Shown here: one piece after another, positions 26,893 through 57,439 of the stretch | Layout: each line of letters starts with the position of its first letter | Position numbering within the stretch: the stretch's first letter is position 1 | NCBI GenBank assembly: GCA_965649765.1 | Contig: OZ287754.1 | Span: forward strand, 52,824,001-52,888,000 | Direction of reading: 5' to 3' | DNA from: Bispira polyomma | Taxonomy: Eukaryota | DNA length: 64,000 nucleotides | The notes under the pieces: generated by a model | Told to the model about the DNA's origin: nothing | Seen by the model: only the letters and a program-made list of their open reading frames with translations | Database searches by the model: none | Position numbers and translations under genes: made by a program

Positions 26893-28084
26893 CTAATGTA
26901 ACCACAAGGCCATCATAGCATATTGTGTGTGTATGTATTTCTTCCTTAAGTAGTCGGCATGTCTAACAACAGGATGTGAACACATGTAGTTTCTATTTGG
27001 CTTCATAAAGACTTAATCTGTGTACGGCCAACTTTTAGTGTTGTTCCACTTTGGCGTCACCTATTGATAGAGGCAATAGTAATAAGTCATATTAGTAATT
27101 TGTTTACTTTGTAATTCTCCGAGAATAAGGTATCTTCAGTGCGTGAGGCCTGGGCTTGATTCCCAGTGATGTACATACAGGACATCATTATGTTGGCAAT
27201 ATGGTATAAGTTAAAATTTTTTAACTCCTTTACTACTGGGCAAACAAATGTCATATTAAAGTAGGGGTGAGCATTGCGCATGAAAATCGTATTGTGATTT
27301 ATTGTGATATTTCAGTCATATTCACTTATATCGCTTATAAATCGTAAGCAGTGATCACAAAAGGACTAACACAGACAATGTCAACAATTCATACATTCAT
27401 TCATTAAAATCATTAAATATAAAATAATATCAACAAAGAATTCCATCGACTTTCCTTTATTTATATCTATAATGGGTGTATATGTATATTTTAGATATTC
27501 GGCAAGACTCCATACAATTTGTTACTGTCACTGTAGGTTTCAACAGTTTAAGACAGAGAATTGGCTTAAATCAGAGGTTTAATTAGTTAAAAATAGTAGG
27601 TTCCTAGGTACCTGCGTACAGTAGTCTTGGCACCAGAACTTTTGATCCTTCCATTTATCTTTTCCACACCAGGTGTTCGGGTACCACTTGGTCATTTAAT
27701 TCCAATGTTCGCAGCAACAGATAAAAAAAAAACTCAGTACTTGGATATCTGGTTGTGTGTGGAAATATAATATAGATACTCAGGACTTTGCCAACCAAAG
27801 TAGCTTCTGCCTTTCAACAGCTACTTACCCAATAATAGTACTTCTATTTAGGTTGCTTGGTGTTTTTTTTCCAACTGAATCATAGGTATACATGTTCATA
27901 ATCTATAATGTACCAGGTCTAAGACATACCAGGTCAGGTAACTAGAATGCAGTTATTAAGTTATAATTAAACCTGTCAAGTAATAACCCAGCGGGCACAT
28001 CAACGTTGAATCAACGTTGAATCAAACGGTGAAATCACCGTTAGCTTCAGGGTGAAAATGCAAATGGATACGGTAGTCAGTATT

Positions 28085-28500
28085 GAACTTTGATTTCAGG
28101 TTTGATTTAAGACGTTGATTTCAGGTTTGATTTAAGACATTGATTTCAGGTTTGATTTAAGACGTTGATTTCAGGTTGAAAAGACGTTGATTTCAGGTTG
28201 AAAAGACGTTGATTTCAGGTTGAAACGACGTTGATTTCAGGTTTAAACAATGTTGATTTCAGGTTGAAATGATGTTGATTTCAGGTTGAAACGACGTTGA
28301 TTTTAGGTTGAAATGACGTTGATTTTTGGTTGAAATGACGTTGATTTCTGGTTGAAAGCATGTTGATATTAGGTGGAAATGATATTAATTTCAGGTTGAA
28401 ACAGTGTTGATTTTTGGTTGAAATCGTGGTGATTTTAGGTCAAAATCATGTTTGTTTTTGGTTGAAATTGTGTTGGATTAAGGTTGAAATAATAAGCATT
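28085..28500. repeat. Left subterminal 20-22-bp tandem array (GACGTTGATTTCAGGTTGAAA) of the CMC element
   Basis: About 20 units that decay inward. Confidence 0.9.
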
Positions 28501-29101
28501 TCAGGCTAAATTATGTCAATATCAGTTTGACTTGACACAGATTTATTATTTTGTTTCATCAGGTTAATTTTACCTTAAAAAGTGGACTAAAATTTAATGT
28601 GATTTCCATGTGAAGAATATTTAAAAACTCAAAATGGACTTCATACTTTATTTTCTTTAAAATAAGTTTAGCACATTACATACCAATTACAATGTTATGA
28701 TACAAAGATTTTATTGTCAAAAATTACTGTAAAATATAAACTCAGTGGTAATTGCACAAATATTCCTGCAACACTAGATAAATATAGGCTGAATCATGTC
28801 AAGTATACAAGTCACAAAGTGTTTATAAAAATAATAGGAAACACTTCATAGAGTAATTGTAACTTTCAATTAGAATTACTGAAAATAGTGGCTAAGCAAT
28901 GGACTTCAATATACCATTATAATTTTTAAAAAAGGCAAAGTGTATAATGTGTGACAAAATAGACATGTATGTAATAGTGTATATATTATAGAAGTGAACA
29001 TAAATATTAATTTAAGTTACCTGATAAATTGCAAACTGAAGAAGTGAACAACTTCATTATAAAATTGCTAAAAGCACGGACTATCAAACAGTTCTAAAGC
29101 A

Positions 29102-30140
29102 AACTAGACCTAGCGCATCGGAGAACCAATGCATATTTGTATCCACCAGAAAGGCAAACCACCCTAGGTAGCAAGCACCCAAGCTAGGAGCCTATGATTT
29201 ACTATGGAGCATTTATGCTAAAGCCTTAATCGCACAAGTGGGTTTCATATTTTGCGAACGTGGGACCAATAAGTGTGAGATAGGCACTTAAAATTTGGCC
29301 CACCCGTTTGACCTTGCACAAGGGATCCAACGTCAAATCTGACCACAGGAAAAGATCAGCAGCTCATGATTTTCTATATGTTGGTTTCACATCCCAAACC
29401 AGTACAACCAATAATAAGCGAGATATAGACACTTTTAAGTGCGGCCATCTGCATTTGACCTTGAATGAGGACCCCATGGTCAAATCGGACTACATCAAAA
29501 GATTCCCAGCCCATGATCTCCAATAGGTTGGTTTCACATCCAAAACCTGTTCGATCAAAAATTAAGCGAGATATAGGCACTTTTAGGTTTGGCCATCCCT
29601 GTTTGACCTGGAAGGAGAAGGCCAAGGTCAAATCTGAGCACATCAAAAGATTCCCAGCCCATGATTTCCTGTAGGTTTGTTTAAGATACCAAACTTTTAG
29701 GACCAATATTAAGCGAGATATAGGCACTAGGAAAAGTTTGGCCAAACTCTGTCACTTGGGGTACTATGGTACTCTGTCGATTACCTTGAATGAGAAGATT
29801 CAAGGTCAAATGTCTGCATGCTTTTAAAAGACATACACATCCATTAAAAATATCACCTGTAAAGAGATTCAACCTTCTACAGCTGAGAAATAGACACAGT
29901 TAAAAGCCTGATTATTTTTAAAGAAACGTCTGTGACGACCATCTTGTTTGTCAATATGATGCCAAAATTACTCCCAGAAAGCTTTTGTAATAAAGAACAT
30001 TTTCTGTAAATTTCAGGAGCCTAGGTGTAAAAGTTTTCCCAGGAGAGCGGTAACGGTATAATCTCTACACACACTGACCCGTCGGCATAACGATGACTAA
30101 ACCATAGTATCCACTAGAGTTTTCCGATGGATACAATTAA
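29102..30140 (-). mobile_element. Helentron/Helitron-type non-autonomous element (HINE) with ~123-150-bp internal tandem repeats
   Basis: Minus-strand 3' end is hairpin GCATTGGTTCTCCGATGC then CTAGTTT. Subterminal IR TTGTATCCA (29137-29145) / TGGATACAA (30128-30136). Palindrome GTATCC..GGATAC. Repeats GACCTTG..GGTCAAATC..AAAAGATTCCCAGCCCATGA. Confidence 0.75.
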
Positions 30141-30261
30141 CATCAACCTGGTGAAGTGCACAAAAAAGACAACACACCATTTTTAAGCCATGTAACATTA
30201 AAAGAGATATTCAAGGGAGACCATGACGTGAAACGAAATGATTGCCCTTTTCAAGGGATGT

Positions 30262-30395
30262 TTAATTAGTGTCCTGCCTATTGGGAATAGATTTTCTTCC
30301 AGCAACCCCCTTTCTGTCTGGTGCGTACTTGAGGTACCTAGTAATATACATCATAATGTCTGTTTCAGTCCCTCCTCTGGCACTTTGCACTACAT
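30262..30395 (-). CDS. Terminal exon of a DUF4806-like protein (CMC accessory gene)
   Basis: TTTTGTTTTGCAG acceptor. Translates VVQSARGGTETDIMMYITRYLKYAPDRKGVAGRKSIPNRQDTN*; LKxAPDRxG is the C-terminal motif typical of this family. Confidence 0.7.
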
Positions 30396-32059
30396 CTGCA
30401 AAACAAAATTAAGCACGATAAAACAGTTTTCAATTTGTACGAGATCCTTATTTACAATACAAAGAATGCATTACTATATTTCATTTAATGCTTAAAGTTG
30501 GTGAAATATCACCTTAAAAAGGAAGAAAAAATGAAATATTCAAGCATTAAAAATTTTACCAGTAGAGCCAAAATATTAGGATTAATAGTCAGCACTACAT
30601 TGTAATTATATATTACAATGATCCAGATATGAACAAATAGATAGCATGCTTTAAAAAATAAAAACTACTTCTACTTTAAATACATAATAATTTAAGTTAA
30701 CAACCTTCTGTGTTATCCCTATTATATAAACAAAACAACCATTCATTGATCGATGAATGGGTCACATATGTCAGATGACGCTCAACAAAACAGACGGAAA
30801 TAAAAATAAAACCTCCTGGCAGTACATATTATAAGTACCAGTGAGTTTGAATCCATTTTAAGGAAATAAGAACGCTATAAAATACTGCCATATTCCTCAA
30901 TGATTGTATGTAAGGTTTACTATAAATTGTAAAACAAATCAAACAATTTGGTAATTAGGTCAAACCCTTAAAGGTTCAATTACAAAAAATATACAACTTT
31001 CTTAAAATATTAAAATGGCTGCATCATCCTTCGCACCAACCACGTGTGAATACCGAACATGGAGTCTAAAAGCCAAAGAGAAGAAGGTCAGAGTGCTGTC
31101 TACGCGATCCATAAAGGCTTTGCGCAATATGTCGAAGATCGATCGCGCATGCGCAGATCCATCTTTGAGAAGAACAGCACATTATTCAATATCTTTTGCC
31201 AATGTGAAAAAGACAATTACCTTTCACGATTGTACACATCTAAGTTTTTTCAAATGCCAGCTTTCCTCCATTCCCATTCATATTCATCTTTGACATACAC
31301 ATATTTGTCATCAATCTGAAAATTTGGAAAAGTTTATTCTTATAAAACACTTTTAAAATATAAATAAGGATTGTGTTTATAGGAGGTTTGTGGTACCGGG
31401 TATTAACTTTTCCTGATCAGCCACCAAAAAAAGCCATGAAGATATAAATGTCTGAAAATAACCACATATTTAATGCATTATTTACTTTAAAGCACCACAC
31501 ATACAAATTATTATACATATGGATACCACTAGGTTTATTAAAAATGATAACTTTACGAGTTCAGAAAACTTTGGGTGCAGTGGACATGATAACCCATATG
31601 TGATACCAATAAAAGCAAAAAGTCCAAGGTAACCCATTTAATTCATGCAACCATGTTGTTCAACCAGCATGCTTGCAGTGATAATGTTAGTTTTAAGTGC
31701 AAGCTGTTCATTAAGGAATATTCACATATAGGCAAACTGTATACCAAACTGGGTAAAGATATAAAAAATGCTTTGCCTTAAACAAGATAAAATCATTTTT
31801 AAATAGGCTTTACAGGAGCTCTTTTTTTCCATAACTTCTTTTGGCAGTCATCTTATTTTATAAATAATGCCAAATTTCAACATTATCATAGCAGTAAACA
31901 TATCCTGAAAATTTAGTAGACTAGTTGCAATAGTTTTCCTGTCAGAGCTTTACCGAAGAAAATCTCTCTATGCGTGGATTCGGATGTATCCACCGGATGA
32001 TTAATAATTTTTTTACATCATAAATTTCCCACCTTGGATCAAAAGTTTTATAAACTTAC

Positions 32060-32127
32060 CTCGGTATTATCCGTTTAACATTATTATCTCTGGCATCCAC
32101 ACCCCCAATGGTTTTGAGATAGGTCAT
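32060..32127 (-). CDS. Internal exon of the DUF4806-like gene
   Basis: TATTTCAG acceptor, AG|GTAAGT donor. MTYLKTIGGVDARDNNVKRIIPR fits the L..IGG......V.R pattern. Confidence 0.6.
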
Positions 32128-32289
32128 CTGAAATACATATGCAAAAATGTATCTCAAACCATAATATGGAATTGTATAGATATTTGTACTCATACTCTTG
32201 TACAATTTTTTTGGTATTTAAAACTATGCCAATTTGTACCCCGACCTACACCTTTTTGAGATCCGGGGAGACCAAAAAATGGGCACATG

Positions 32290-32420
32290 TATGCAGTAGC
32301 CCTTGGGCAAATTTTTAATATAGTATCATCACATTTCGACCAATCAGAGAAGTCACATGACAAAAACGCGTAATTTTTTGTCCTATATACAAACAAGCGC
32401 CCTTACGGGATGCTTAATAA
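32290..32420 (-). mobile_element. Terminal fragment of the same HINE family as 9445-10898
   Basis: ~120-bp match to 10780-10898, including the hairpin AAGCGCCCTTACGGGATGCTT. Confidence 0.75.
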
Positions 32421-34652
32421 AAATTTATTGTTCCCAGACAGAAGAATTAACAAATAGAAGAGCATAGAACGCTGTTCTCATTAACATAATATAACTATTA
32501 CGTAACTGCAGTGATATATACTGGCCAGTGATTGCTCCATTAAACAATATTTAAATTTTATTTGAAAGAATATCCAATGTAGTACAATGTAGTAGATGAA
32601 ATGCAATTGAGCGCGCTGGACAAAGGGCCTGTCAAACCTTTCAACAATGTGTCAATTTACAGTAAGAGAGTAATTAACACATTAGCCCAGGTAAAAAAAT
32701 CAGCCCCCTATGAATCGAATCAGTACTACAATAGATGTTTGAAGTAGAGGGTTATATTTGATTTGGTGATTAATGGTTCTCTAATGAGCTTCTTTGAAGA
32801 ATCCACAATGGCTCTACAAAGTGTTTTTTTGCGGAACCGACAACGGTTAGCCAGCCACTTCGATATTTTTATTATCAAAATTGAAAAGAATATAGTAAAG
32901 TTATTTTAGAGGGAGTCTTCTGATATTTTTTAAGGATTTTTTTTCAAATATTTGTTTTGTATTAAGTAGTAAACACTTTTGTATATATGTGCAATTTATA
33001 AACCTTCAACACTGTACCACAAGCAAGCCAGGGGAGTACAATGTAAACACACATAGATATTTCTGTAGGCAGTGGTGATCATATGTCACTCTCAAAAGGA
33101 ATTTAATTTCACTTAAACTCCTGTTTGGGTGATACCTATTGTGAAAATCAGGTGCTTCTTTTTAAAGAATATACTGTCTGCTTCCTTGGTCACATTATTG
33201 AATGACCTTGTTTAATAAATTACTCAGTTTAAGTTTACATTGGTACATCATATTCAGTAACTTTTAAATATATATTACATTTATTCATCAAAATTATGAT
33301 ATAAAATTATATTAACATAAAATTGCATTGCCTTACCTTTATTTATATTTATAATGGGTGTATGTGTATTTGGAAATTCGAAATGACTTTAAACAATACT
33401 TAAAAATACAACTTGTTACCGTCACCTTAGTTTTCAGCAGTTTAAGTCAAAATCAGGTGTTTCTTTAAATTAATAGTCCTCGCCTTCGGCTCGGACTATA
33501 ATTTTAATGAAACACCTGATTCTTGGCTATTCTCCTACACAGAAATAAGGCTACAGTGAGTAGATGATTCTTTTACTAGGCAATTAAGTGTAGGGGTGTA
33601 TACTCTAGCTGGCATGTTTAACAGAATTAATGAAATAAAAAAGTCAAACTAGAAATAAACTTGAATTCCAAGCTGTGTGCCCACTGGGTAGCCACATACC
33701 CACTTCTACATACAAATTGATACAAGTACCAATTTAAAGGAAATCCTCAACTCTTATTTTTCAAAAATACACACACACTGCTATGTTTTACCGGATATTA
33801 AAGGAATCTCTCAAACCCTCTTTTCCCCCCTGTGAAATTTTAGAAGTGTGCAATAAATTAATGTCATCTGTTTGACTGACAGTTTTATGTACCCCCAGTG
33901 GGATGCATGCACAGTGTGTTTGTACAGTCTACAGAGTAATGAGACTGCACATCTCACATATACACTAGAATTGTAAAATGGAAAGAGATTATTTTCACTC
34001 AAAGATTCTATATTCTGTTGTAGTGAAATAATATCAGTACTAAAAACATTAAATTAAAAAAAATAAATCTTGTAAACCTTCATTGTGTAGGATACTATGC
34101 ATTATACATTATATGTCTATTACAAAGGTAATTCCTTAAACACATTTTTTGGGGGAAGCAACAATAGCTTGAAAAAAGGACAATAGATGTGTTTATGCCA
34201 ACACATGTAAAAAAAAATTAAATTCTCCACACTTTTGAAATTGCCAACATTTATATACCTGAGTCCTATTCTATTTTGACCAGTGTATTTTTTGGACATT
34301 TGAAAAAATTACATTCATAACCATTTCAATTTAATATTAAAGTAATATTTCCATTAATTGACAAAAATTTCTGTTAAAAGAAATGGTAACACTAACAAAA
34401 ACACCATGCACAGAATTAACAAGATATGACTTTACATGAAATTTTTAAACTAAATAAAAAAATATAGTTGAACCTATATTATCAAAACTTATGTTATCCA
34501 AATAATCAATTTTATGAATTCAATTTTACTATCCCAAACTTATGTTTTTGTGTTGTTGTATATTAAAATCAGTATTCGATTATCTGAATAAAATGTTACT
34601 CTCAACATATTCGGATAATAAAGGTTCCACTAAAACTTTTTCGCCATTTCTA

Positions 34653-34980
34653 AGCCTACGTTCTCATGTACGCGATTTGCGGCAAACGACGGATGATTGC
34701 AATCACGAAATTGGATGCTGTTTTCTTATATAGCCTACGTCAGTATGCTACATTTAGACAATTAATAGATGTTAGCATCTAGTACACACAATTTCTCCAC
34801 CCGAATGCGTTTTTTTTCCTCTAAATGAATAAACCACCTGAATTCAGAAATTGCACATCAGATGTCAGAAATTGCAGTAGCACACTTGAAAACAAACATG
34901 ATAATTTATAGCAAGGGAAAACGTCACAATCGCAAATGGTGCGTCGTTTGCCACACATCGCATACATGAGAATGTAGGCT
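34653..34980. mobile_element. PIF/Harbinger-like MITE
   Basis: ~38-bp TIR AGCCTACGTTCTCATGTACGCGATTTGCGGCAAACGACG / CGTCGTTTGCCACACATCGCATACATGAGAATGTAGGCT. Confidence 0.75.
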
Positions 34981-35316
34981 TAGTCATATAGCAATAGAAT
35001 ATTTTGTTCACATGTTATTGCTCATTCACACTGCACCGAATGCGAACATACAGTTTCGTTGGTCCTTATAAATTAATGTAGGCATTCTTCACACTGCACC
35101 GATCGGGATATTGATCAAGAAATAAAGTCAGTCGAATGAAAAGTTGCATGAATTTTTTCATAAACAATATTTTATTGGAACAAAACAATCAGGCAAAATC
35201 AAAAAGATTATTATAAAGCCTTCTCGCAGGAAGATATATATACAAAAGAAACAAAATAGAAAAATAACATAGAATGACGAATGAAAAGATGAGAAGGTGT
35301 GTGGGCACTGTAGTGA

Positions 35317-38300
35317 TCAAAAACTATGAAACCGGTTTGTTTCCCTTAAAAATTCTTGAACTGTTCGAAATATTTTCTGGTTTTGTTCAAATGTCAAGTC
35401 AAGGCTACCAAATAATAGAGTTTCACTTGTAACAGCAGGAATATCATATAATTTAGCTAACATTAACCGTCTCGGTATGGCATAGTTTATACAATCTAAA
35501 AGGAAATGTGTATTATTTTCATCAGATAGGCCACAGTCACAAGTGCAATTGCTCAAGACATGTAAATATTTTGTGAGGTGTTCCTTAAGAGGGCTACAGT
35601 TCATGCGCATTCTAGCATGAATTGCATTCCAGTACCGTTCACCTTCAACAAACAATTTTTTACGGAATTTAACTAGTTTTTCATTACACTTAAATTGTCG
35701 TTTGCGTAATATGTATTTGAATGTAGAGAGAGTTGTTGCATATTTGAGTGAGTTGTCAAGTTCATTCCAGAGTATTAACCCAGCTGGAATGAAGGAACTT
35801 TGATGCATATTTATTCTACATTTTGGAAACTGAAAATCATGTCGGTTTCGAAGTTGATATGTGATGGTACTTCCAATTGTAGGAGGAATTAAGATTTTTA
35901 GATAACTCGGAGCTAAATCATGTGTAATTTTATACATCATTATCAACACATGCTGTTCACGCCTACTGCATAAATTTTGCCAGCCTAGTTCCTCAAAGAG
36001 TGAGCGAATGTTTGATCTAAAAGGAGCACCAGACACAAGCCTCATAGCATTAACCTGAATACTATCTAGTTTGCGTAAATCAGAGTGGCTAGCCCCAGCC
36101 CAAACAACATCACCATATTCCAAAATGGGTCTAATAAAAGCAAAGTACATTTTTTCCAGTGTAATTCTGCTAACTTGATATTTTAACTGCTTTAGCATGT
36201 TCAATCGCTTTCCAGCTTCAGTACTGATTTCATCTATATGCATATGCCAGCCCAAGTTATCCTCAAGCCAAAGCCCTACATGTTTATGTTTAGCCACATT
36301 AACAATTGGTGCGTTGTGTAAGTACAACCTTGGATTTTCACTTTTGTGATGTTTGAGGCCAACAATCATTGATTCGGTTTTTGAAGGATTGAAAGTAACA
36401 AGCCAATTCTGAGACCATTTTTCAATATTTTTTAGGTCCTCATTTAATTTAATTGCTGAATCTATTCGATTGTCAACTTCAATAAAAAGGCAAGTATCAT
36501 CTGCAAAAAGTCTTAAGCTACAATTTTTTACAACTTCTGTAATATCATTAATAAAAACCAAAAACAAAAGAGGCCCCAGTACTGACCCCTGTGGTACCCC
36601 AGCAAATATTTTGCTCCAGTCTGAAAATTGACCATTGATAACAACTCGTTGAACCCTATCTTTTAGGTAATCTTCAAACCACTGGAGTAATGTACCACTG
36701 ATACCCCATTTCTTCAGTTTGAATAACAATCCCCGATGCCAAACGCGATCGAAGGCTTTAGAAATATCAAGGAACACAACTCGTATTTCTTTCTTTTGAG
36801 ATACCGCTGAGCAAAATGTATTATATATTTCAATTAATTGGGTGATTGTTGAGGAACCTGGCAAAAACCCTGATTGCCAAACTGACAGGAAGAAATTGTC
36901 TTTAAAATGATTATATAAGTATGTAAAAACTATTCTAACATCTTTCCCAAAATACTGAGAAGAGATACAGGTCGATAGTGTCCTAACACATTCTTGCTGT
37001 CTTTTTTGTGTAACGGTACTACATTAGCTTGTTTCCACAGCTTAGAAACCTTCCCTGTAGACAATGAAAGGTTGAATAATTTGGTTAACGGCTTTACCAA
37101 TGAGCGATTTGCTAGTTTTATAAATTTAGGTGAAAGACCATCGGGGTCATATGATTTGTTACAGTTAAGTATTGATATCTGGTCAAGTACTTCTTTTTCT
37201 GACACTATAATGTTGTGTAAAACACCACCCAATGGGTTGTCATCAACTGGTAATTGAGCCTGCTCTTCTCTTAATATACTAGCTTCGGCAAAAAAAGAAT
37301 TAAAAGCATTTGCTTTTTCGTTATCATCAGTTATCAGAGTACCATCCTGAGATAACATAGGGGGAATAGATTTATCAGTAGGCTTTTTCACAAAAGATTT
37401 TGCTAGTTTAAAGAATGAGCCATTACTGAAATTTTCTGCATTAAGTTTCATATAGACCTTATTTAGATGGTCATTCTTACAGCGATTGACTTCACGATAA
37501 TAAAAATTTCTTTCATGCCTATAGTTATCCCATGAAGAAACGGTATTTGCGCGTTTTGCCTTAGAATATAGGCGGTTAACTTTACGTCGTAATCTACGTA
37601 GATAGCCATTGTAAAAAGGTTTATCAAAAGAACGGACTGTCACTTCCTTATGTGGAATACATTCTTGAGCTGATAGTAACAATTTTTCTGTAAATAACTT
37701 ACATGTTTCATCTATGTTATCTTCATTTAATAAACTATTCCACTGAAAGTTGTCAAAAGAGTTTTTATACTGTTCTATATTGATTTTGCTGAAATCCCAC
37801 ATAGTCTTTTTATAGCATTTTGTTTTCTTTACACGAAAGAGAAGTTTTACAAAAATAGTACAATGATCGTTATTTGCTAAAGGTGGTTCAACTCCGGAAG
37901 TTTTGATGAATGCAGCGAAATTGGTTAAGCATTGATCAAGAACACTGCTTGTAGTATTAGTGATACGTGTTGGTTGATGTATAAGAATGCGAAGATTATT
38001 TATAGTAGAAAAGCTGTTCAAGTGCTGGCCCTGTAAGGAGTTGAAATCAGCATTTAGGTCCCCAATTAATAGTAAATTCTTACAGTCGGTACTTATGATG
38101 TTGTCAAGGCTATTTTGTAGATGAAACCAGAAGTCACTACAGAATGGAGGTCGGTAAGCAACGCATAGCAAAAACTTATTTGTATTAACTCTGACATCTA
38201 ACCACATTGTTTCGATTTCAGGTAATTCCAAATCTATCCTTCTTTTAGCTGCAATGTTATTTGCAACCCAACACAGCACCCCACCCCCTAGGTTACTCCT

Positions 38301-38750
38301 ATTTAGAACAAATGGCATTTGAAATCCATCAACAGCAAAGTCCTCTAGATTATCCTGGTCATTTAGCCATGTTTCACTTAAGGTAATTATATTGTATCTC
38401 AGTGAAATTTCATGCCTTATGATTTCCATTTTGTAAAATATATTATTAATTTTTGGCTTTAAGCTTCTAATGTTGATGTGACATATAGAAACATCGCAAA
38501 ATTCAGTATTATTCACAGGCCCGGGGTTGGTTTCAATATCACCAGCCAATGCCAGTAATTGTAAAATTAATAGTGGAAGGCATACCGGTATAATATTCAG
38601 TATTGCTATATACAATCTATTTCTGGCTAAATCGAGGAGAGAATGCAAAGAGAAGTAGAACTCACTGTAATGGGAATAGTAAAAAAAGTAATAACCAACG
38701 TCATTTGAACAAAACTTTCCTACCAATTCTCTTATTATGGAGATATGCAT
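35317..38750 (-). pseudogene. LINE ORF2: 2A motif + APE endonuclease + reverse transcriptase, with a single frameshift at ~36933
   Basis: NIRSL, LSETWL, GDLNA, LDQCL and NDHC (APE). YRPVSLL, DISKAFD, GVPQGSVLGP and LFADD (RT). TTAGAATAG vs expected TTAGAAAGAATAG (LERIV) indicates a 4-nt deletion. Confidence 0.92.
38517..38570 (-). other. 2A-like ribosome-skipping (StopGo) motif LILQLLALAGDIETNPGP
   Basis: Exact D(V/I)ExNPGP consensus just upstream of the APE domain. Confidence 0.85.
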
Positions 38751-40139
38751 ATTAGTAAGCCCATTATTTTAGATGTTTCTCTTTGTCATAGTTTTAAAGC
38801 CACAGGTCACCACACCTTTAGGATAACAGCATGAAAAAATGAATGATAACATAATAAAGCTCAATAAACTGACAATAAAATAAAAAAAAAAAAAGATAAG
38901 AGAAAAAAAAAAAACAACTAATAGAATATCTGTATAGGTATATACAAAGATAGATTGTTAATATTCAAGGAACAGAAAAGTTTGGGGTTACAAATTAATC
39001 AACTCTCACAGAATTGTTGTGGAACTAACACATTTTGATATAGCCAAAAACATGAAAGCCTTACTATTTGTGTTTATACAAGAAAATGGGGTTCCAATGA
39101 AGAATTTATCAGGACAGTATATTACTGGTAAACAGTCAAGTGCAAATATGGCATTCAGTACACATTATATACCAAATACAGAATCATCTGTGGAGTGCTA
39201 TTTAAAGAAACAAAAGATATTCTATAACTTTCCTAGAAGTTTCCCTCATTAAGTATATATTTATGACTTTACACAGGCAAAAGATTCTCCATAAAATTGT
39301 AGAAATTTACATCATTAAGTAAATATTTATAGTCCTATTTTTAAGTACATCGTTTAACAGAACAGTCACTGATACGTATATGTACCTATTTTGACATACT
39401 TGAGTTTTTAATAATTTACAATAAATTTAGTGTTACATACTATATAGCAGCTGGCAGTGTCATTTAACATATATTGAATACACAATAAAATATTAGCATA
39501 TGGTGTTGATTACAACTGGTCTTTCAAAACTTTATAGATGCTGTCTTTATACACATATATATGAATATTTTATCCAATGCACATATGATGATTGAAAACT
39601 ATTTTTTATTTTAAAAATGCACTTTAACGGCTAGAAGTGATAGATAACTATGTTGTTGATTGAAAATTGTAGCAATCAGTTAGTTTGTCAAAACAGTAAT
39701 TAAACTGAACTTCACACTTCTTCTAAAAGTTTACCTAAAGTGTTTTTTCCAGTCCAATTCTTTTCATCCCAAATTTTGCTGTCATGGATGGTCAGACCAA
39801 CTCCCCTGTACTTGCATGAATTTCTTTTGCTAATTTGCACACGAATGGTTGAGAGAGACTCACTGATTTTTTCAGTCCACTAAAGTTTTCCAGTAAAAAT
39901 GATGTCAACTTGACATATGATTTGGATGAATATTTCGGCTGTATGTGTATCTTAATCATCCAGATCAGTTTTACAAAATAATGTATATCCATAAAACTAG
40001 TGGTTGAATTTATCCCAGAAATGAGGGAGTATAGAAATATGTTGTTGAACAACAACAATTAAAATATAGGTATTAAGTTTATGTGTATTTGTGTAACTGC
40101 CACCTTAACTTGATTAGTAGTGACAAATAAGATCATTAG

Positions 40140-46200: not shown

Positions 46201-46887
46201 TTACATGTGTACTGTGTCACTTTAATAAATACATGAAAATGTATAGCAAGTTTAAAAATTTGGTTTTGTGTATATTGCTGAATTCTTTGATAAATCTGTA
46301 TTTAGTACAGTGTGAACTAGCCATTAGTGTGGAAATGCATGTTGATTTTGTTGAAGTGTGGTCCTGGTTATACAACCCCTGTAAACCACAAGCCCCCATG
46401 ACAGATTGACTACATTTTGGGGAGGGGGAGGAAAATCTGGCCCAACTCAGAGCTTTTCTCACAGGTAAAATGTAGCACAGCACACAGTAAATTGATCCAG
46501 GACAAACCTCTAGAGAAATGGACAGTTGTGTTTATGTTATATACAGCACAACTACACTGTGTGTATACAGCACATTTATGAAGGTTTAGTTCAGAGTGCA
46601 TAAATGAAATGTTCATGGTACATGTACAACTTTGTGGAAATATATTCACCACATTTATTTAGGTTTAATCTAGTGCATCATACATACATATATTTAAATC
46701 CAAAATTATTTATACCTTTTCTATTTCATAGAATTTTATTATAATTTAATTGGTGACTTAGTTTCCTAAAAATAATTTTCTTAGTTCATTACACATATAC
46801 ATGTTTATGTAAGATTCTTAAAAATCATTATATTAGCCGGGTTGAGTAAAACCCAGGTTTTATAAGTATTGCCCAGCAGGAAAACCC
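43117..46887. repeat. Tandem array of 4 x ~956 bp (4th copy has a 55-bp deletion)
   Basis: Units start at 43117, 44073, 45029 and 45985. Identical spurious ORFs recur at 956-bp offsets. Confidence 0.95.
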
Positions 46888-47591
46888 GGGTTAGCAATTT
46901 TATATGTATGCTTTAAAGCATTGTCTACATCATACAACAAAGACTTACAAACTGACACACACATACACAAACAAAATAAGAATTTTCAAACAATTGTTTA
47001 CAAAAGCTTTTTCCTGGTTCTAGGCTGTTTGGTCATATTAATTGCAATTTACATGTCACACACAAAAGATATCCCAAATCTGTCATAACTCAAACCTTGC
47101 ATTAAATTGAGCTGAGTGGCTAATCCTTTCTGTCACAGGATACATTTTACTTGATATTTTATGTGGGATTACACTGATTCAGTCAAAGCTAAGAAATAGA
47201 CTTGGCCCTTAAAAGGCAACTAAGTTAGTTAGGTGTTATAGGTAAAATTGAAATTGACTGGTAGAAAGTACTTACTGTCTGGCATAATATTTTGATTGTA
47301 CATCAATTTCCTATCATAGTATTATTACGTGTAACTCTATAGAAAGAATGTGAATAACAAATATTATTATTAAAGGTCTTTTTAAAATAAATACTGGTAC
47401 TGCCCACATTTCCTAGAATTATCCACCTTTTGGAGTATTACCCGCCCCTTTTGGAGTATTTTGCCACTTTTGGGAGTATTGCCCAGTATTGCCCACCTAG
47501 GGGTATTGCCCAGTACGGATTAATCCGGGTTTTCACAGGGGGGAGGGGGGGGGGGGGGTAATACCTGGGCAGGTTTTTCATCTCAACTCGG
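46837..47591. mobile_element. MITE with 8-bp TSD (hAT-like)
   Basis: TSD TATATTAG at 46829-46836 and 47592-47599. Ends CCGGGTTGAG / CTCAACTCGG. Subterminal GTATTGCCCA repeats. Confidence 0.8.
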
Positions 47592-48319
47592 TATATTAGT
47601 GTATTACTCATATACATATGTATATGTCTGATTGCAGAGTATAATACAGGCTCAATAATATTTCAAACTATTAAAAAAACTAGCATTGTTCAATACAATT
47701 TTATACTTTACTGTAAAGTAAATTCATTCATTCATAACCTTAATTACTAAAATTAATTTTTCATCTTGGACAAGTGATAATACTGTGGAATCTATTTACT
47801 GTCCTGAATTAAAGACAGTTTTATATCCAAACCAGTACCTAAACCTTTCGAAATATTGTGCAGACAGAGAGCACATAGACATTTGGTTTGTGAAACATAG
47901 AACAAAAAGTACTAAAATATCCATTTTTTAACCTTAAATCAATTCAATTTTTAACCTAAAATCAAGTGTCTCTAATATACTCACAGATAAGAATTTTAGG
48001 TAATCTCAACAAAATGACCCTCATTTGTAACATAACCATCAACTTACAAAATTTAAATAAAATGTGAAGAACATATATGGAAGCTGGCCACGAGAAACCC
48101 CTACAAAGACATTATAGTAACCTCAAAGTCACAGCTTAAAGGTCAAAGTTGACCAACAAGAGCACACAGTAGACTAGTGGCAGCATCCCAAAAGAAACAA
48201 AAACCTAACAAAAAAAATATCTATGTTTTTTACTTAAACGGATGTATTGGTCAAAGAAGAATCCATTAAATTTTGGAGTGAATTTGGCTTATGAGTAATA
48301 GGCTAAAAAATATGAATTA

Positions 48320-48506
48320 CAGTAGAAGCTGTATTATACAAATTTTGATTATCTGAATAGTCGATTTTATAGACTGAACTTCACTTCCCCAGCTCCTCGC
48401 ACTCATACCTGTTTTATACTAACTGCCTTTTCTATTTTATTAACCATCTATGATCCAAAGGAATTCTAACTCTTCCAAGTTGTTTGGATAAAAGAGGTTG
48501 TACTGT
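48320..48506. mobile_element. Tc1/pogo-type MITE, degenerate
   Basis: TA|CAGTAGAAGCTGTATTAT...ATAAAAGAGGTTGTACTG|TA. Confidence 0.55.
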
Positions 48507-48757
48507 ACTTCAATACAGACACACAACAAAATCAAACTAAAAAACCTGGTGTTCAAAAAAGTTAAGACTGGATGTAAAAAGGAAGCAGGGGCGTAATCAC
48601 GAAAGGTCTTAGTCTTAATTAGTCATAAGTTTAAGATTTTAGTCTTTGATTTTGTATAAAAAGCTTAAGATTTTGATCTTAGTCCCTGTAACAATAAGAA
48701 AGATCTTTGGTTGGTGTGAATTTCACCTTAAACAAAGACTAGTCTAAGTGAAGACTT

Positions 48758-49190
48758 CAGTGGCCGTATTCACAAAGGGACTTTTGTGCTAGATTAAAGC
48801 CTAATGGCCCATTCACATTGCAATGAATCCGTATATACGGAATCGTTGGTAGGTATAAATGAACAGAAGCATTCACACTGCAACGAATCAGGATAATGAT
48901 CTAGAAATTTGGTAGGGATCAAATGTTGCACGAATCTTTTTTCTAATTTCCACACGAATTGTTGAGGCAGATAAACAAAAGCATGTGGAAATAAACAACA
49001 CCATCTGAAACATAAGTGAAAAGTGACGCATGTGCGCACAATTCTGCCGAATTTTTCATCTGTGTATGTACTGCAAGTGCATAAAATTCGGTTTTGTGTA
49101 TATTGCTGAATTCTTTGAGAAATACGGATTCGTTGCAATGTGAATGGGCCATAAGACCTGGCTAAGTCCTTTCGTGAATACTGGCCCATG
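48758..49190. mobile_element. MITE containing a nested MITE
   Basis: TIR CAGTGGCCGTATTCACAAAGGGACTT / AAGTCCTTTCGTGAATACTGGCCCATG. Confidence 0.7.
48805..49151. mobile_element. PIF/Harbinger (Tourist-like) MITE
   Basis: ~30-bp TIR TGGCCCATTCACATTGCAATGAATCCGTAT. TAA TSD at 48802-48804 and 49152-49154. Confidence 0.85.
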
Positions 49191-49787
49191 TAAACACTGT
49201 CCCTTGGACACACATTTATAGAGGTTTAGATTTCCTAACCATATGCACAACAGGAATGCCCTGTTAATGTTATTTTAATACACACACTGCCTGACACATT
49301 GATTACCCAGAGAGGAGATAAGGAAGTCTAAATCCAAGCTCAAAATAGCTGTTTTGGGCACTTGTATGTAGCAGCGAATAATATCTTTTAGGGGATTTCT
49401 CCAAAAAAATTCTTGCAAATGAAATTAATTCTCATTTTATTTTTTTCTAATGACATTTATCGACAATTTTATATTATAACCCATATGCAAGTAAATGAAG
49501 GTGAACTCTGAAAAGTCAACTTACCTTATATTTTGAAGTTCCTATATATGTGTTCTGGTAGAGCTAGTCTTGATTCATGCAAAGCCCTCCTGGAAAAAGA
49601 AAGGGCCAAAAACATAACAGTTTTAATTTCTCTCGGTTTTGAACTACTTTTTAATCTGTAACCAATTGAAAAGAATTTGAAATAATGATCCAAACCTGTA
49701 AGTGTTCTGTACAATTATAATTTGTTTGATTTAATTTCAATTAATTGTATACTATGTAAATTGTACGAAAAATTGTATAAAGTAATA

Positions 49788-49962
49788 CAGTGGAACCAGG
49801 TTAAGTCAAATCTGAAGGGGCCATCACATTTGTTTTACTTAACAGAAATTCTACTTAACAGGCTAAATTTTAATTGGAAATATAGCAATTGAATCTTATA
49901 ATACCTTCTACTTAACAGGTAATTCCATTTATCAGAGTTCTACTTAAATAGGTTTGACTTAT
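49788..49962. mobile_element. Tc1/pogo-type MITE, same family as 2959-3126
   Basis: Reverse-complement similarity along its length (AAATATAGCAATTG, TTAACAGGTAA, TTATCAGAGTTC). Confidence 0.7.
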
Positions 49963-52900
49963 ATTTTGTATATATGGTTGTGTAGCTGCACGCTGGCTGT
50001 CTATAGTAGCTAATATATTATAGTTACTGTTTTATATATATGTCCTGAAGTCTGTACTTCCGGGTGCTCTCTATGAAAATAGCCAACCTAATTTGCATAA
50101 AATTCTTTCAATGTCACTCACACACACGTGGCCTGTCATTTCGTTGACGATAATGTCACTTGTTTACAAACAGGAAAAGTGAGCGATAAACGAATAGTTT
50201 ACCCTAAAATTATGCCTTTTTACAAGAAATAACTTTAGAAAAACTTGATAAAAAACAAATATTACCATAATATATCTTCAGCTCTGGTTCATTAATATAT
50301 CAAATTTTACAATTTCATTAATGCTTCATTTTGAAAGTAGGACTTTTACAGCTAACCCTGTTGATAATGCCTCGCAAGGCAGTATGGAGTTATAACTGAG
50401 AAATGCCATTCGATATATTAATTTCCATAACATCCACCCGCCATTTTGCTGGTTTGTTTACTCGCAATTGAAAACGAGGTTCAAGATCCCAGCGAATTAA
50501 GTTTTTGTTGTATTTGGGTTAGTTGGGGTGTTCGCTGCTGTGAGAGGTATTCACTGAGAAACTATAAGTTTTCTAATTTCATTTATTTTATTAATGTACT
50601 GACAGTTTTGAACATTCGCCAAACATTTACCATAGCTTATAACACATTACAAAACTCATCACTGTTTAACTCACAAACTCTTTACTCTGAACTAAAACTG
50701 TATATCAACTGTAGACTGATCTTTTCACTGATCTAAAACTGTATGTAAAACTATAGATTCCAGACTGAAATTCAAGCCACATGTCGGGCCTTTTTATACA
50801 CAATATAACTTTACTTTAACATTTACAATCACAGTAAGTCCTATTACTGTCCACCAATGAAATTACATAGACTCTTGTTCACAGTGAGTCTGCCAATGAG
50901 AAACCAGAACTTATCCCAAGTGATATGTAAATATATTTAACTAGACATTCATTAAGTTACAGTGACATCTGTGAAAACAAGGAAATCCTAAAGGAATACT
51001 GATAAAATAGAATAAAGGTAAATTTCCTATTTGTTGCCATTCTTTGACAAGTCTCAGTAATGTACCTTTTATAAACATTAACATTTAATCCTACAAGCAA
51101 GTGAGATCTATACTTTCAATTTGCTGGCACTTTCATCACATACACAAATACACAATTTCACAGTTACAGATTAAGGAAACACAACTGACCATTGATCTTG
51201 ATTTAGGAGAGAATAATTGTTTACCTAGAGGTCAGTGTGTCAAGGGATTATAAACACAAGTGTTGTTATATGGAACTAAGGTATGATTTCACTGGCATCT
51301 CATTTGTTTTGTAAGATCTTAGGGCTGACTAAATACTAAACCTACAATGTAAACTAAAAATCCTTAATACAATATGTATGTGTGATCTAGTCACACCACT
51401 AAAAACATGTTACAAAACACTGAAGGGACTAATTCCCATAAGATAAAGATTAGTCATTACATTCTATGTATACAAGTTAAAAGTAAGAACCTAGTATATA
51501 CTTCATCAATAATAACCTGAATATAAAATGACATTGTATCATATTAATTATTATAATATAGAGAGAAATGTAAAGATACAAGTGTCTAATTACTACTAAT
51601 ACCCAATTACAGGAATTCATATGAAATACAATAACTGCATTACTTAAAGATATTAATATAATGGTATGTTACATCATAAAATATTGTGTAATAATGAGAA
51701 TATATAAAAAATAATGTACACTGTCAATTTGTCTATTTATATGAAAATGTCCATTTACAACATTTTCACAGATAGGGTTGTGGACAAGTGTAACTATACA
51801 TTATAAATAAAACCAGATACTTATGTACTTTAGACCTTATGAGTAAAATATATACAAAAACGATTCCAAAAACAATCAGCCATGGACTTAAAACAAACAA
51901 GGCCTGTGCGTATAACAATATTTTTGTACACACGGATCCGCCTGTATAAAATTGCCGAAAATTATATTTACACTTAACCAACTAATTTTCTTGTAAATAC
52001 AGAATTTGCATCGACAACTTGTTAGATTACTTGTTAAATGGATAAACTGTATAGCTATACATACTCTTGGGGAGTAGATTCAGAAAATATATGACTTTAA
52101 GTAATTAGTCTTTTTAGGAGGGAGAAATTGCCAAAAAAATTATCTACATACACATGTTTTACACATTTACAATGTACAAAGTACTGATGGCTTTGAGAAT
52201 AAAAGATATCCTCAGATAAAATGGTAAAAACTTACCACTACAAATATGTACTGTAATCCTGGTTCCCGCCAAACAAAATGTGCATACAAAATAACCCATT
52301 GCTAGACATTACATCCCAAGTCTGACCATCTCTGGGCAGGGGTAAGATTTCCCTTATCTCCCTCCTAAGTATTAAACCTGGCAGTTAGTGGTTTTAAACA
52401 TACACTCACTCTCCTGTGGTGCATCTGCTGATAAAGTCAAAACATGTGTATATTCCTTCAAGTCCAGTCTTACACATGCAGTATAGTACACAAGTTTGAT
52501 CAAACAAGAAATGTCTTTAAAAAAGACTGGTAAATTGCTTTACCAGAATCAAAGAAAAAATATTGTTTTCTTGTGTAAAAGGAAGTGGATGAAAATTAAA
52601 TGTTAACACAGCTGTTCTTGGCCAGGTCAAGTGGGATGGGGGGGAAGGTGGGGATGGGGTGGTGGCGGGTGGAGAAGTCCTCATCATAGAATCAGAAGAG
52701 TGGAGGGGATTGGAATGTCCATATTCATAATATTTCATGATGTATAGTTTTGTATATTTTACTTTTTACTTGACAAAGGTCATAGGTCATGGACCAGACT
52801 TCAATACCAATGCCAACTAAGACAATTGGAACAGAGCTCGGCTGGTGGTAAACATAAACCCTGATCAGCGCAATTATGGGTTTGATCTGTATAACTGACA

Positions 52901-55900
52901 ATGATTTGTGTTTAAGCACTTTACCCGCAGAAATTAGTTTGTATTACACCCCTTTTACACTGGTGGGTTAAAATGCCAACAAATTGATCTATATCCGTTT
53001 CCAGGTTAATCACCTTTTCCATTATAGTAGGTCGACATCTTCGGCAGTTTACAAAAATACCATAGGTCCTGGGTTCTAACCTTGGCCATTCTGGGCTATG
53101 TCGGTTTCAATCATTTGGGAAGCTTTCAAAACATGGCATCAACAGCAGTACCTTAATTTTGTATTAAATGCCCCCATGAAAAGCATGAGACTTCAAAATG
53201 ATTTTATGTTCATAAAAAGAGAGTCAGAGAGTGGTGTCGAGATTATGATAGCCCTGGACATTTAAAAATCGATTTTGACATTGAAGTGCTGTTAATTATT
53301 GTTAAGAGTAATTAAGAATAATGTTTATAAGCATGAACATTGTCTTCTATCTACACATAAAGCATTCAGACATTTTAGGAACACTTTAATCGTGTTATGG
53401 ATATTGACTTGATTTTTTGACATTTGTTATGTTACCTAGAAATAAAATTTTAGTTCAAGTAAAAAATTTTCTTCTCAGTATTTTTCCAACAGTCAACAGG
53501 TAAAGACCAGTGTAAATTAAATATGGCGGCTTCCACAGTAAGGTGAGATATTGGTAAATATGTTAAATACTTTGTTTTTAGCAGAAAACTTGGAATATTT
53601 ATACATTCAACAAAGGTTACATACCGAGATATGTGTATTCCTTGGTTGTACAGTGTTATTTCATTAAAAAACTCGTAATTTGATCACAATTCATGACACC
53701 CCTGATATTTCTCTTATGATCGTCCCCCCCTTTAGCAAAAATGCATCGCCCTGGGGGCGTTAAATACAGAAATTATGGTATATCTGATACCCATTCTCAC
53801 TTGTCCAACGTAAGAACTTGGGCATTACATCACAATTAAACCGGCAATTATGACTAAACAATAATTTCACAATTTGTCAATACTTTTGTATTACTAATTG
53901 TATTTAAAGCTTTAATGTTTCCAATTCATTTCAATAACTATAAGTTATCAAATCAAATGCTAGTCATCATTGCTTGTTCCATCTTGGACTGAGGATGTTT
54001 AAGAAAATCCTATGCTATTTGGACATTTGGAGTCGCAGATGCATTATTGAGGATATAGCTGCGTCAACTTGAAGCTAGTACCAGTTTTTATATTACATTG
54101 AACATTTCAGAAATTCAATGCTTTTGTAAGAACGAATATTTCATTTCTATGTGTAAAATAAATCTATCATGACATATAGTTTTTATTGTCTAAATTGAAA
54201 ACAGGTAATAAAGTTATTTTAGAGTGACTCTTCTAAAAAAAATTTTAAATCATTGTTTTGTATCAAAAAGTACACCTTTTGCAAATATGTGCAGTTTATA
54301 AACCCTCAACATCTACCAGTACACCCTTTGCAAATATGTGCAGTTTACATACCCTCAACATATACCACAAGCAAGCCAAGGATGTGCAAGATAAACACAC
54401 CTAGATATTATTATCTGTAGGTAGTGGTAGATCATGTGTCACACCCAGCAGGAGTTTAATTCCACTGAGATAAGGCCAGAGTTGAGGATTCCTTTAACTG
54501 GACAGTAAAGTGTTACAGTGAACCAGGAAAAATAAGGTCGTACACAAATTTGTTGAAATCTCCACAAGACAACAGAAACAAATTTAAATTATATATTGCA
54601 AATCATTAATCCATATGAAGCAATATTACATGCATTTTAATGGCTTCCATTTTTGCAGTAAAGCTCTATATACCTACTTTGTTGGTTCACAAGTTTATGA
54701 AGTATATTGATTTTTCTCATATATGATATAAGTTAATTGAGGGACCTGTTTGTTTATACTCAAAACAAACTCAGTTGTGGTTAATTGGTCTGAATTAGTT
54801 GCATGTCAACTTATTAATGCATTTTGACATCTAATAAAATCAGGATGTGAAATAAAAATTTATTTGTGTATTGATTGTCCAAGTTGGTAGTTATCAGCTC
54901 ATGCCCAGAGATTTAAAGTGTAGAATCTTGACCAACTAGAATGCAGTGTTTTGCTCCACTACTAAAAGTTCCCAATATGATATGACTATACAGTTTATTT
55001 AAATCAATGTTACACAACTATCGAACTATACTTTGTCATCTTATATCTAAAAGGCCCACAAAGAGGTCTTTAATATTAACTGGATCTGTGTTTGAAAAGC
55101 AAAATCAGTCAGAATCATATAATTTCCAGATTTTTTAGTCTGTCACATGGAGTCTTTTATTAATGTATGTTAATATTAGTAACTTTTGTCATTTAAATAT
55201 CAAGAAGATATAAAAACATTTCTGAAAGCTGGGAATCATGCAACTATTGTTAAAGCAATTATGTCTATCAAAGGGAATTTTGATATATCATATTTTGATT
55301 GTAAAATCATGCAGTGTCTAAAGGACATTCTTCATGACGTCTAAATAACAAGAAAAGAGGACTTTATTTCTACTTTCATGTATTTATACTATAATTTTTG
55401 TCATTTTGATGTCTAGAAGCCGTCTGAAAATGCCTGAATGATGGAAAAAAGTAGTTATGGCACCTTTGTTCATCCAAGGAAATATTTCATTCACTGATTA
55501 ATTGCAATTACAGTGTTTTGCATTCTATCAGGGCAGTAAAGACATCAGGGGAAGTACTGAGACAAAGACAATTGCTAAACTAATTAATGACAATTAACAG
55601 TAGGTGGTCAAATAGGTAAGACAAATAATAGACTGACAAACAATAGACACAATATAAATGTTATTATTTTAATTATTTCAATAATCCTTATGTGCTGTAT
55701 ACTTCAGTACTTTACCAATAAATACAATTCCAAACCTTTTGACACCTATGTACTACCCCTAATAAGAAAATATTACACTGATAATACACTAATAATACAT
55801 ATTAAGCTAGTAAAAAACATTGGATTTTAAAGTAGTGTAGGGTAAACAAAACAAAAACCTTTTTGGTGTGGTTAAGTTTAAATTTTACCCAAGTATACAT

Positions 55901-56459
55901 CATTTTAATTAATGCAGCTACTGTAATATTCCATGTATGATTTAATGCTTTCCACCATAAATGGAAAGTGCTTTGAAAATAAATAAAATAAATTTAATTT
56001 TAAGGTTGTTATCCATATTTTTACTGCATACATAAATGAAATAATTAAAATTAGCCTCAATGTAAAATTTTATCTTACCCTATTTTAATCTAGGCGAAAT
56101 CAAAATTTTAATTTGGTCTGGGCAGATTTTAAATAGAAGATACCGATAAATTTGTGAAAGATGGGAATCAATTATTGTTAAAGCAATTATGTCCATCAAA
56201 GGGGATTTCGATATTTACGTCATATTTTGTTTGTAAAACCAACGTTTAAAGAATGTTAAAAATCCTGATGTCTAAATTAAATGAAAAAGATTTCTACCTA
56301 ATAAATGTTTGTAAACGTTTCACAAATGAACAGAAGAAATGAAAATACTGAAATAATTTTATGTTTGCTAAATGTTAATTAAACATTACCAGTAATTGTC
56401 CATTCTTCTGTTTATTTGTGAAACGTTTAATAAACGTTTATAAAAACTATGAATTTACA

Positions 56460-56830
56460 CAATTACTTGACGTTAGTTTCTGGTCTGATTATTATTGTTC
56501 AACGTCGACAACCAAATATCAACCTGGTTTCTAAGTCAGTAGTAACACTATTATTTTACGTTGATTAATTGACGTTGGTTTCTGGTCTGGTTTTTATTGT
56601 TTAATGTTGACAACCAAATATCAACCTGGTTTCTAAGTCAGTGGTAATACTATGATTTCACGTTGATTAATTGACGTTGGTTTCTGGTCTGGTTTTTATT
56701 GTTCAACGTCGACAACCAAATATCAACCTGGTTTCTAAGTCAGTTGTAACACTATGATTTCATAGAAATTTATAGACATGGAATTAGGGTTGATATTGGG
56801 TTGTCAACGTTGTCAACCTAATATCAACCT
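56460..56830. repeat. Right subterminal ~99-bp tandem repeats (x3+) of the CMC element
   Basis: TTGACGTTGGTTTCTGGTCTG...CAACGTCGACAACCAAATATCAACCTGGTTTCTAAGTCAGT repeated. Confidence 0.9.
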
Positions 56831-57439
56831 CAATTCTAAGCTGAAATCAGGTTGTGTGCCCGCTGGGAACCTGCACTAGGTTCCTTACCATATATATTTA
56901 CATTTAAATTCTAACAAGTTTAAATATTTCACAAGTTTTACATATTAAAATTAATTCAAATGGAATTTGTTGCCTCAAATTAAGGTCGTCTTAAATAGTG
57001 CAGTGGTACCTTACATTCACAATTTACTGCTTAAAGTACATAAATAAAATATTAATATTTAAATTTACACTTACTTAATAAATATTATGTAACCATTTAA
57101 CCAGTAAGTGAATGACACAAAGGGCACGACACATGACACAGGATGTATGTGAGTGAATGATACAAGAGACACGACACATGACAAGGGACTTGAGTGAATG
57201 AAATGTTGACCATTGGCCTCTCCCAAATTTAAAGCCACTTACAAAGCCTACTGTGATGACCCAGTCATCGCGAGTACTAATTCTGGACTCGTGCTTACGA
57301 TATATCTCTTTTTAATGGAAGTTATGAAGCGAGAATTAGTTAATTGTTAGTATGTTAGGTATATACTAGTATTTTACTGCAAAATAAGGTTGTCATTCAC
57401 TAAATTCGCAGCATTTTTGTCTGTTTTATAACATTTTCT

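Follow-up and report, generated by a model that had tools for sequence, protein, structure and literature searches.

How much of a very long transposon-like span has moved as one unit, and with whose transposase? This question is raised by a stretch of 64,000 nucleotides from Bispira polyomma (contig OZ287754.1, positions 52,824,001 to 52,888,000; hereafter, the window), almost half of which is enclosed by matching inverted ends. An earlier note, made from the letters of this DNA, had proposed that the span may be one giant CACTA/EnSpm-type transposon. The analysis described here confirms that positions 27987-56867 (minus strand) are one insertion and that it is a non-autonomous animal CACTA/EnSpm element. 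It is highly probable that the element inserted once, at a length of about 14-16 kb, having likely been mobilised in trans, and that it likely gained another 13 kb after landing.

One insertion at a single AA

The element is bounded by 13-bp terminal inverted repeats (TIRs). The sequence CCCAGCGGGCACA at 27987-27999 is its 3′ end, as judged by the orientation of its second open reading frame (ORF2), and the exact reverse complement at 56855-56867 is its 5′ end. Both are flanked by AA (27985-27986 and 56868-56869) and together they enclose 28,881 bp. Taken alone, this TIR pair is weak evidence, because inverted pairs of 13-mers are common in the window: 761 perfect pairs were counted, five of which start with CC or CA and have equal 2-bp flanks. 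Subterminal tandem arrays lie at both ends, on the left (27999-28560) with 11- and 22-bp units in which ACGTTG/GGTTGA is abundant, and on the right (56443-56840) with 102-bp units containing ACGTTG/TCAACC. ACGTTG reaches a density of 20/kb over the leftmost 600 bp and of 17.8/kb over the rightmost 450 bp, compared with 0.14/kb in the interior and 0.11/kb in the flanks; thus, the motif is approximately 130-180-fold denser at both ends than in either.

The insertion itself is visible from an empty site. A paralogue of the left flank with 88% identity was found at C7:53749344-53749771 (C7 and similar names denote contigs of the same genome). At this locus, the equivalent of window 25966-27988 runs straight into that of 56868-57252 with a single AA, the element is missing, and identity to both flanks is 87-88%. 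The paralogy around the empty site at C7:53749771 reaches back to window 19136. Among the pieces listed for contigs from three DNA runs over 27000-34500, none bridged the junction.

The type of element is given by its ends. TIRs with a CCC core and 2-bp duplications are described as defining animal CACTA-related elements (PMC1636069), while CACTA ends and 3-bp duplications are described for plant elements (PMC4158355). A plant-type CACTA element was considered and is ruled out here, as the ends read CCCAG and the third flanking base is mismatched at the window, C9 and C4 sites.

Family copies and target sites

The two ends were used separately as queries against the same genome, and about 40 candidates were scored per search, so that the copy counts given here are lower bounds. 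From these searches, 22 regions were taken: 11 large copies in which both ends enclose a collinear interior, five short derivatives and six partial copies. The 11 other large copies span 12.4-27.1 kb, with two end positions placed by hand. Together with the window element, the 12 large copies occupy at least nine sites on five contigs, as the window and C7:52.62M have common flanks and three C7 copies occupy one TA site. Exact 2-bp duplications (AA, TA, AG, AT, AC and CA) are present at six of the nine sites. Ten short candidates were examined; both ends could be located in six, and five of these have a 2-bp duplication. The short derivatives with matching ends are 1.4-3.6 kb long. Genome-wide, the exact end pattern has 45 matches, compared with none for a reversed control, although this count includes about 20 from a sister family with CCCAGTAGGCACA ends. 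Near decayed transposases, at least two further CCC-ended EnSpm families with other arrays are present.

The copies fall into two subfamilies, A and B, with 91-96% identity within and mostly 84-89% between them. Subfamily A represents a burst at 93-96% identity, and in a tree of 1.1 kb it is star-like, with terminal branches of about 1-2.5%.

Much of what the earlier note had described is therefore upheld: the perfect CCC TIRs, the AA flanks and the length of 28,881 bp can be read directly in the sequence, the motif-related arrays stand out in the densities above, and a single non-autonomous CACTA/EnSpm-type element is established by the empty site and the collinear copies. The single-AA site and the joint recurrence of both ends, which it had proposed to look for, were found at the 88% paralogue and in the 11 other large copies, respectively. 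Neither of the two outcomes that it had named as refuting the idea was observed, since the ends co-occur around collinear interiors and the empty site lacks the interior.

Some of the copies have a more complex local history. Six lie within 460 kb at C7:52.49-52.95M. One flank of the TA-site copies matches window 21421-20799, 6.5 kb away from where the element inserted, and may point to local hopping in a repeated unit of about 205-235 kb; this flank was rejected as a second empty site, since it matches on one side only. At C8:16.76M and C2:4.60M, right ends on different contigs have an identical flank, and the duplications of the C8 copy do not match, which suggests recombination between copies. 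In the C7:52.73M and 52.94M copies, about 10.6 kb of interior (in window equivalents) has been replaced by a 4.2-kb segment containing what we take to be a Harbinger-like transposase fragment.

The mobile unit is about half of the span

Comparison of the copies divides the element into 15,567 bp common to the family and 13,314 bp private to the window site and to a twin with the same flanks, C7:52.62M. The private DNA includes a long interspersed nuclear element (LINE; 35159-39811, minus strand) with endonuclease and reverse transcriptase in two overlapping frames and a 12-bp target duplication, and a Penelope-type element (40140-43274, minus strand) with a 15-bp target duplication and a poly(A) tail on the strand that does not encode its ORF. 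The frames of both, which the earlier note had recognised, are present: the LINE contains RVT_1 and endonuclease domains, and the Penelope element matches RVT and, weakly, GIY-YIG, both under the Pfam cut-off. There are also a 347-bp miniature inverted-repeat transposable element (MITE; 48805-49151) with inverted ends and many dispersed copies (92-97%); a 1,257-bp insertion with TGT...ACA ends (50506-51762), presumably solo-LTR-like (LTR, long terminal repeat); a 424-bp insertion with similar repeats elsewhere (33114-33537); and a 629-bp segment (55499-56127), in whose place other copies have different DNA of similar length. All six pieces occur in two of the 16 rows compared, the window and its twin.

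The twin lies 234 kb away and is 99.5-99.97% identical, flanks included; it is therefore probably a segmental or assembly duplicate and not the product of a jump. Thus, because the 13.3 kb are found only in the window and in this same-flank twin, the unit for which movement is shown measures about 14-16 kb, approximately half of the span. The private pieces likely arrived after the element had landed here.

In this respect, the earlier note went too far. It had treated the whole 28.9 kb as a cargo-carrying, intron-rich mobile element, while 13,314 bp are private to the site and its twin and the family has moved as about 14-16 kb; the cargo found so far consists of other transposons and not of host genes; and 'intron-rich' is too strong for what was found, namely three decayed exons belonging to the second gene of the element itself. 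Its description of a landing pad fits the window copy; in other copies, the private DNA can be as short as 183 and 707 bp. The AT-rich core of roughly 16 kb that it had estimated is close to the 15,567 bp that are left, but this core is no more AT-rich than its surroundings: the guanine plus cytosine content is mostly 0.28-0.37 inside the element and 0.30-0.40 in most flank bins.

At the junction between the Penelope element and the core lies a tandem array (43117-46887) of about four 956-bp units, compared with about two in the twin, which likewise counts among the private DNA. In each unit, 799 bp of core are combined with the Penelope end and with the 16 bases that begin a nested MITE. The Penelope insertion itself resembles the product that a LINE enzyme would make from an antisense Penelope RNA.

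Passengers in the shared core

Searches of the same genome assign about 6.4 kb of the shared core, smaller fragments included, to older dispersed elements. These passengers travelled inside the family element, because they are present in copies at independent sites. For instance, a nested 2.2-kb element with CA...TG ends and AACC on both flanks (52297-54520) is found at five independent sites, at one of them in part. We assume that it is Chapaev-like; it has a 4-bp flank repeat and many copies at 83-95% identity. A nested repeat of very high copy number with tandem units of 148 bp (29101-30139), labelled HINE-like in the earlier note and presumably so, has a mean summed depth of 10^5-10^6, compared with about 30-80 for the flank contigs listed, and occurs in 13 of 13 subfamily A and B rows and in none of three older relatives. 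The large copies also contain a dispersed element of about 1.4 kb with an internal inverted-repeat element of about 330 bp (33775-35153) and a dispersed repeat of about 340 bp (50047-50385). A dispersed element of about 0.7 kb with a CCCAG-type end (46872-47590) is present in several subfamily A copies, and an end fragment of a sister CCCAG-ended family (33538-33688) in some copies.

A further 5 kb or so of the core (39812-40139, 46144-46870, 47590-48800, 49152-50046, 51763-52296 and 54521-55498) matched family copies only, among the candidates scored. None of 124 core frames of at least 42 amino acids reaches the Pfam cut-off, 12 have weak sub-threshold matches, and no long reading frame is conserved across the family copies. 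No host-gene cargo was found, a weak negative given that the searches were saturated by repeats and scored about 40 candidates each.

A dead second gene

What remains of protein-coding sequence native to the element is the 3′ part of ORF2, as the earlier note had anticipated in reporting spliced accessory exons without a visible transposase. Three exons, all on the minus strand, were located with frames of the autonomous element described below and joined by script: the last (30262-30395), which ends in TAA; the penultimate (31221-31315), with AG/GT ends and an in-frame TAG common to copies at three independent sites; and the third-last (32060-32127), with AG/GT ends, which is deleted in subfamily B. 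The joined exons are 45% identical over 83 amino acids to P0115, a DUF4806 (PF16064) protein (E 3e-19); on a C-terminal profile they reach 98 bits, compared with at most 7.8 for 1000 shuffles. The introns lie at the same positions and in the same phases as in the autonomous ORF2. No protein was retrieved in a word-based search with the last exon, and PF16064 gave only two sub-threshold matches over the genome, Pfam models being insensitive to such split genes.

ORF2 is dead in the window, because the TAG is common to three sites, subfamily B has lost an exon, the 5′ exons are missing and variation is intron-like. In effect, across 13 copies of the last two exons, variation is 0.038 at codon positions 1 and 2, 0.044 in introns and 0.073 at position 3, which corresponds to near-neutral decay; the third-position excess may reflect older selection. 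Since the TAG is found at three sites and the exon is absent in subfamily B, ORF2 was already dead before some of the jumps. The first exon and the 'FQK' exon were not found in the window or in the large copies, and are present in a compact relative at C6:73.56M. In this relative, ORF2 exon 1 lies about 0.9 kb from the TIR with no transposase in between, a layout that fits transposase loss by internal deletion.

A candidate autonomous partner

Profile and tblastn searches, the latter as the earlier note had proposed, found no transposase in the window element or in the 11 other large copies (best E 5.3), while a transposase profile does detect decayed transposases elsewhere in the genome. Over the genome, PF02992 gave one match among five candidates, with the same insensitivity to split genes. 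Stepwise protein searches led to an intact transposase frame of 643 amino acids at C10:10638767-10640695, of which C3 contains a 99% copy interrupted by a single stop. When scored on a profile made from 39 PF02992-type homologues, itself excluded, the C10 frame reaches E 1.8e-50. It carries D182, D257, CxxC, HxxxH and E501, a set of the type described for CMC transposases (PMC12730594). The named homologues of one EnSpm transposase of this genome are mostly from molluscs.

These frames lie in two autonomous elements, G000:C10:10627519-10652647 (25,129 bp) and G000:C3:55438068-55459464 (21,397 bp), which have 17.5 kb in common; the C3 copy is flanked by TA on both sides. The 5′ end of the C3 copy agrees with that of the window element at 16 of the first 17 bases, and the 3′ ends agree at 10 of 12. 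The ACGTTG array is common to both families and reaches 40/kb at the 3′ end of the autonomous one, of which a decayed relative (80-86%) also exists. On these grounds, the C10/C3 family is the likely source of the transposase that mobilises the window family in trans. Nine further transposase-bearing regions share only short repeats with the family interior, except for one short-derivative right end at C11:29.23M, and three more share none.

In the autonomous family, a spliced DUF4806 ORF2 is spread across about 9.5 kb after the transposase. The C10 copy contains a nested element of about 7 kb with a tyrosine-recombinase-like frame, which we take to be DIRS-like, and LINE fragments are present in both the C10 and C3 copies.

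A possible BEN fold for the ORF2 protein

The fold of the ORF2 product was modelled on P0115, a DUF4806 homologue from fish. A word-based search with P0115 found two proteins, and the model therefore rests on an alignment of six sequences. It contains a block with predicted local distance difference test values of 85-92 at residues 251-350. In Foldseek, the top 11 rows are BEN domains. In a wide structure search, BEND6 was matched with Z 10.3 and a root-mean-square deviation of 2.0 over 81 residues of a helical domain; the top five rows are all BEN and the next row has Z 4.7. Atlas also has a BEN lead, with a feature score of 0.82. The best structural matches are thus BEN domains (BEND6 7yul, Bsg25A 4x0g and BANP 7yuk), and the window exons correspond to the C-terminal region of DUF4806, although the BEN chains have only 7-16% sequence identity to P0115 and the window ORF2 is truncated and contains a stop. 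For a small helical domain, this match is suggestive.

If the model is right, the ORF2 protein would be a DNA-binding helper for the subterminal arrays and a possible counterpart of TnpA. In maize, both TnpA and TnpD are reported to be required for transposition (PMC1636069). No paper joining a BEN domain, a transposon and EnSpm was found in a search whose coverage stopped short of most subscription journals and Repbase Reports. As a broader proposal, which we hold tentatively and at slightly under even chances, EnSpm transposases in this genome would move units of 15-25 kb, among them 'snowball' non-autonomous masters that go on jumping as they pick up and carry other transposons, and DUF4806 would be a BEN protein that reads the ACGTTG arrays, a counterpart of maize TnpA without homology to it.

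Proposed history and rival readings

These observations can be arranged into one history. An autonomous ancestor would have lost its transposase by internal deletion, giving rise to a master copy that gathered smaller elements, lost the 5′ exons of ORF2 and yet could still be moved, since nothing but the TIRs and subterminal arrays would be needed in cis. The ends would have been bound by the transposase and the putative BEN-fold ORF2 protein of the C10/C3 family or its forebears. After landing in the window, the LINE, Penelope, MITE and tandem DNA (13 kb) would have been added, and the twin 234 kb away would have come from a segmental duplication, or from a duplicate in the assembly.

Other readings start from the same ends. 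That these belong to separate short elements, bracketing host DNA by chance, could be argued from the 1.4-3.6 kb derivatives with identical ends and the frequency of inverted 13-mers in the window; this is refuted by an empty site that lacks the whole interior and by the same ends around a collinear interior at nine sites on five contigs, which leaves it practically no probability. A Pack-CACTA-like element, in which the interior would be captured host DNA or genes, has more in its favour, since the sequence upstream of the third-last exon of ORF2 bears no relation to that of the C6 relative, which also carries ORF2, and was therefore acquired, and since about 5 kb matched only family copies. 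Nevertheless, we regard it as unlikely: some 6.4 kb of the shared core are dispersed repeats, and among the core frames, none of 124 reaches the Pfam cut-off and none is long and conserved, a negative that is weak in repeat-saturated searches. Finally, the full 27-29 kb, private insertions included, could have jumped as a single giant unit. The entire span is enclosed by intact TIRs and arrays on both sides, passengers have moved with the family before, and the autonomous relatives reach 21-25 kb with 17.5 kb common to two sites. However, the LINE, the Penelope element, the solo-LTR-like insertion and the other private pieces exist only in the window and its same-flank twin, and the LINE frames are nearly intact although the element copy itself has drifted about 2% from its subfamily, so that such a jump seems very improbable.

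The reading preferred here, a 14-16 kb non-autonomous element mobilised in trans and enlarged in place, also has points against it. A donor copy could have gathered the private insertions and then jumped as 27-29 kb, and the flanks are mismatched at two of the nine large-copy sites and ambiguous at one. Regarding the partner, the C10 transposase matches no Pfam transposase family, and its element is flanked by TA and TT. The interiors are unrelated beyond shared repeats, with only 41-53% identity in ORF2 exons, and because of this the C10/C3 family appears to be a sister family and not the direct parent. Moreover, the two full copies of this family share about 98% identity, which makes them younger than the burst of subfamily A, although the decayed relative (80-86%) exists. 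A family that has been lost or has gone unseen may be the real mobiliser, and with some 40 candidates scored per search, a transposase-bearing member of the window family could escape detection. As for the BEN fold, it comes from a fish homologue and a six-sequence alignment, and no Foldseek match reached E ≤ 0.001.

Comparison with known systems

The closest likeness in ends is to animal TRC elements (SmTRC1 of Schistosoma, and those of Aedes and Tribolium), for which CCC-core TIRs, starting with CCCAG in Aedes, 2-bp duplications (7 of 14 TRC copies), empty paralogous sites and spliced accessory products are described (PMC1636069). The TRC elements reported there are 5.2 and 9.2 kb long and have a Transposase_21 domain; in contrast, members of the window family measure 12-16 kb without their private insertions, contain passengers and have no transposase. 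Zebrafish EnSpm-N49, a CMC-EnSpm element, is likewise described as non-autonomous, with a 2-bp duplication, and its partner as large and autonomous, with two proteins and an almost identical 13-bp TIR (PMC13189230, PMC11202377). Unlike the window family, EnSpm-N49 has CACTC ends instead of CCCAG and, at 2.5 kb, is about six times smaller.

In size class, the window family resembles the soybean element Tgmt* (20.5 kb; PMC2613891) and red-algal families of 16-20 kb (PMC6431247). According to the same sources, these En/Spm elements also have a TIR with subterminal repeats, a transposase and a DNA-binding accessory protein, but they are plant or algal and autonomous, whereas the size of the window element stems from nested transposons. 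Animal Pack-TIRs are similar in placing a TIR element around foreign DNA in several copies; those described are mostly hAT or Tc1/mariner and contain host sequence (PMC8277862), none of which was identified in the window element.

Implications

A non-autonomous cut-and-paste family of 14-16 kb has thus spread to at least nine sites in an animal. According to a review (PMC6431247), DNA transposition becomes less efficient once the cargo exceeds about 6 kb, and the window family is therefore a natural case of a large load; the intact 643-amino-acid frame makes the load limit testable. The travel of passengers is also a route by which non-mobile repeats can spread. Large CMC-EnSpm elements are under-annotated: RepeatModeler is reported to have missed them (PMC11202377), and a curated bivalve repeat library has two CMC entries (PMC10294476). 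The BEN-fold prediction would give the second gene of animal EnSpm elements a concrete job. The element class is unchanged, and comparable sizes are already known in plants and algae.

Neighbouring observations

Outside the element, window 22342-23853 contains a frame with a MADF DNA-binding domain (PF10545), followed by frames rich in Gln and Ser. This segment recurs at C7:53.74M and partly at C1:104.7M, beside a short family member, and is possibly a Harbinger-type second gene. Further to the left, an open frame of 457 amino acids without a Pfam match (11203-12576, minus strand) may be a large host exon.

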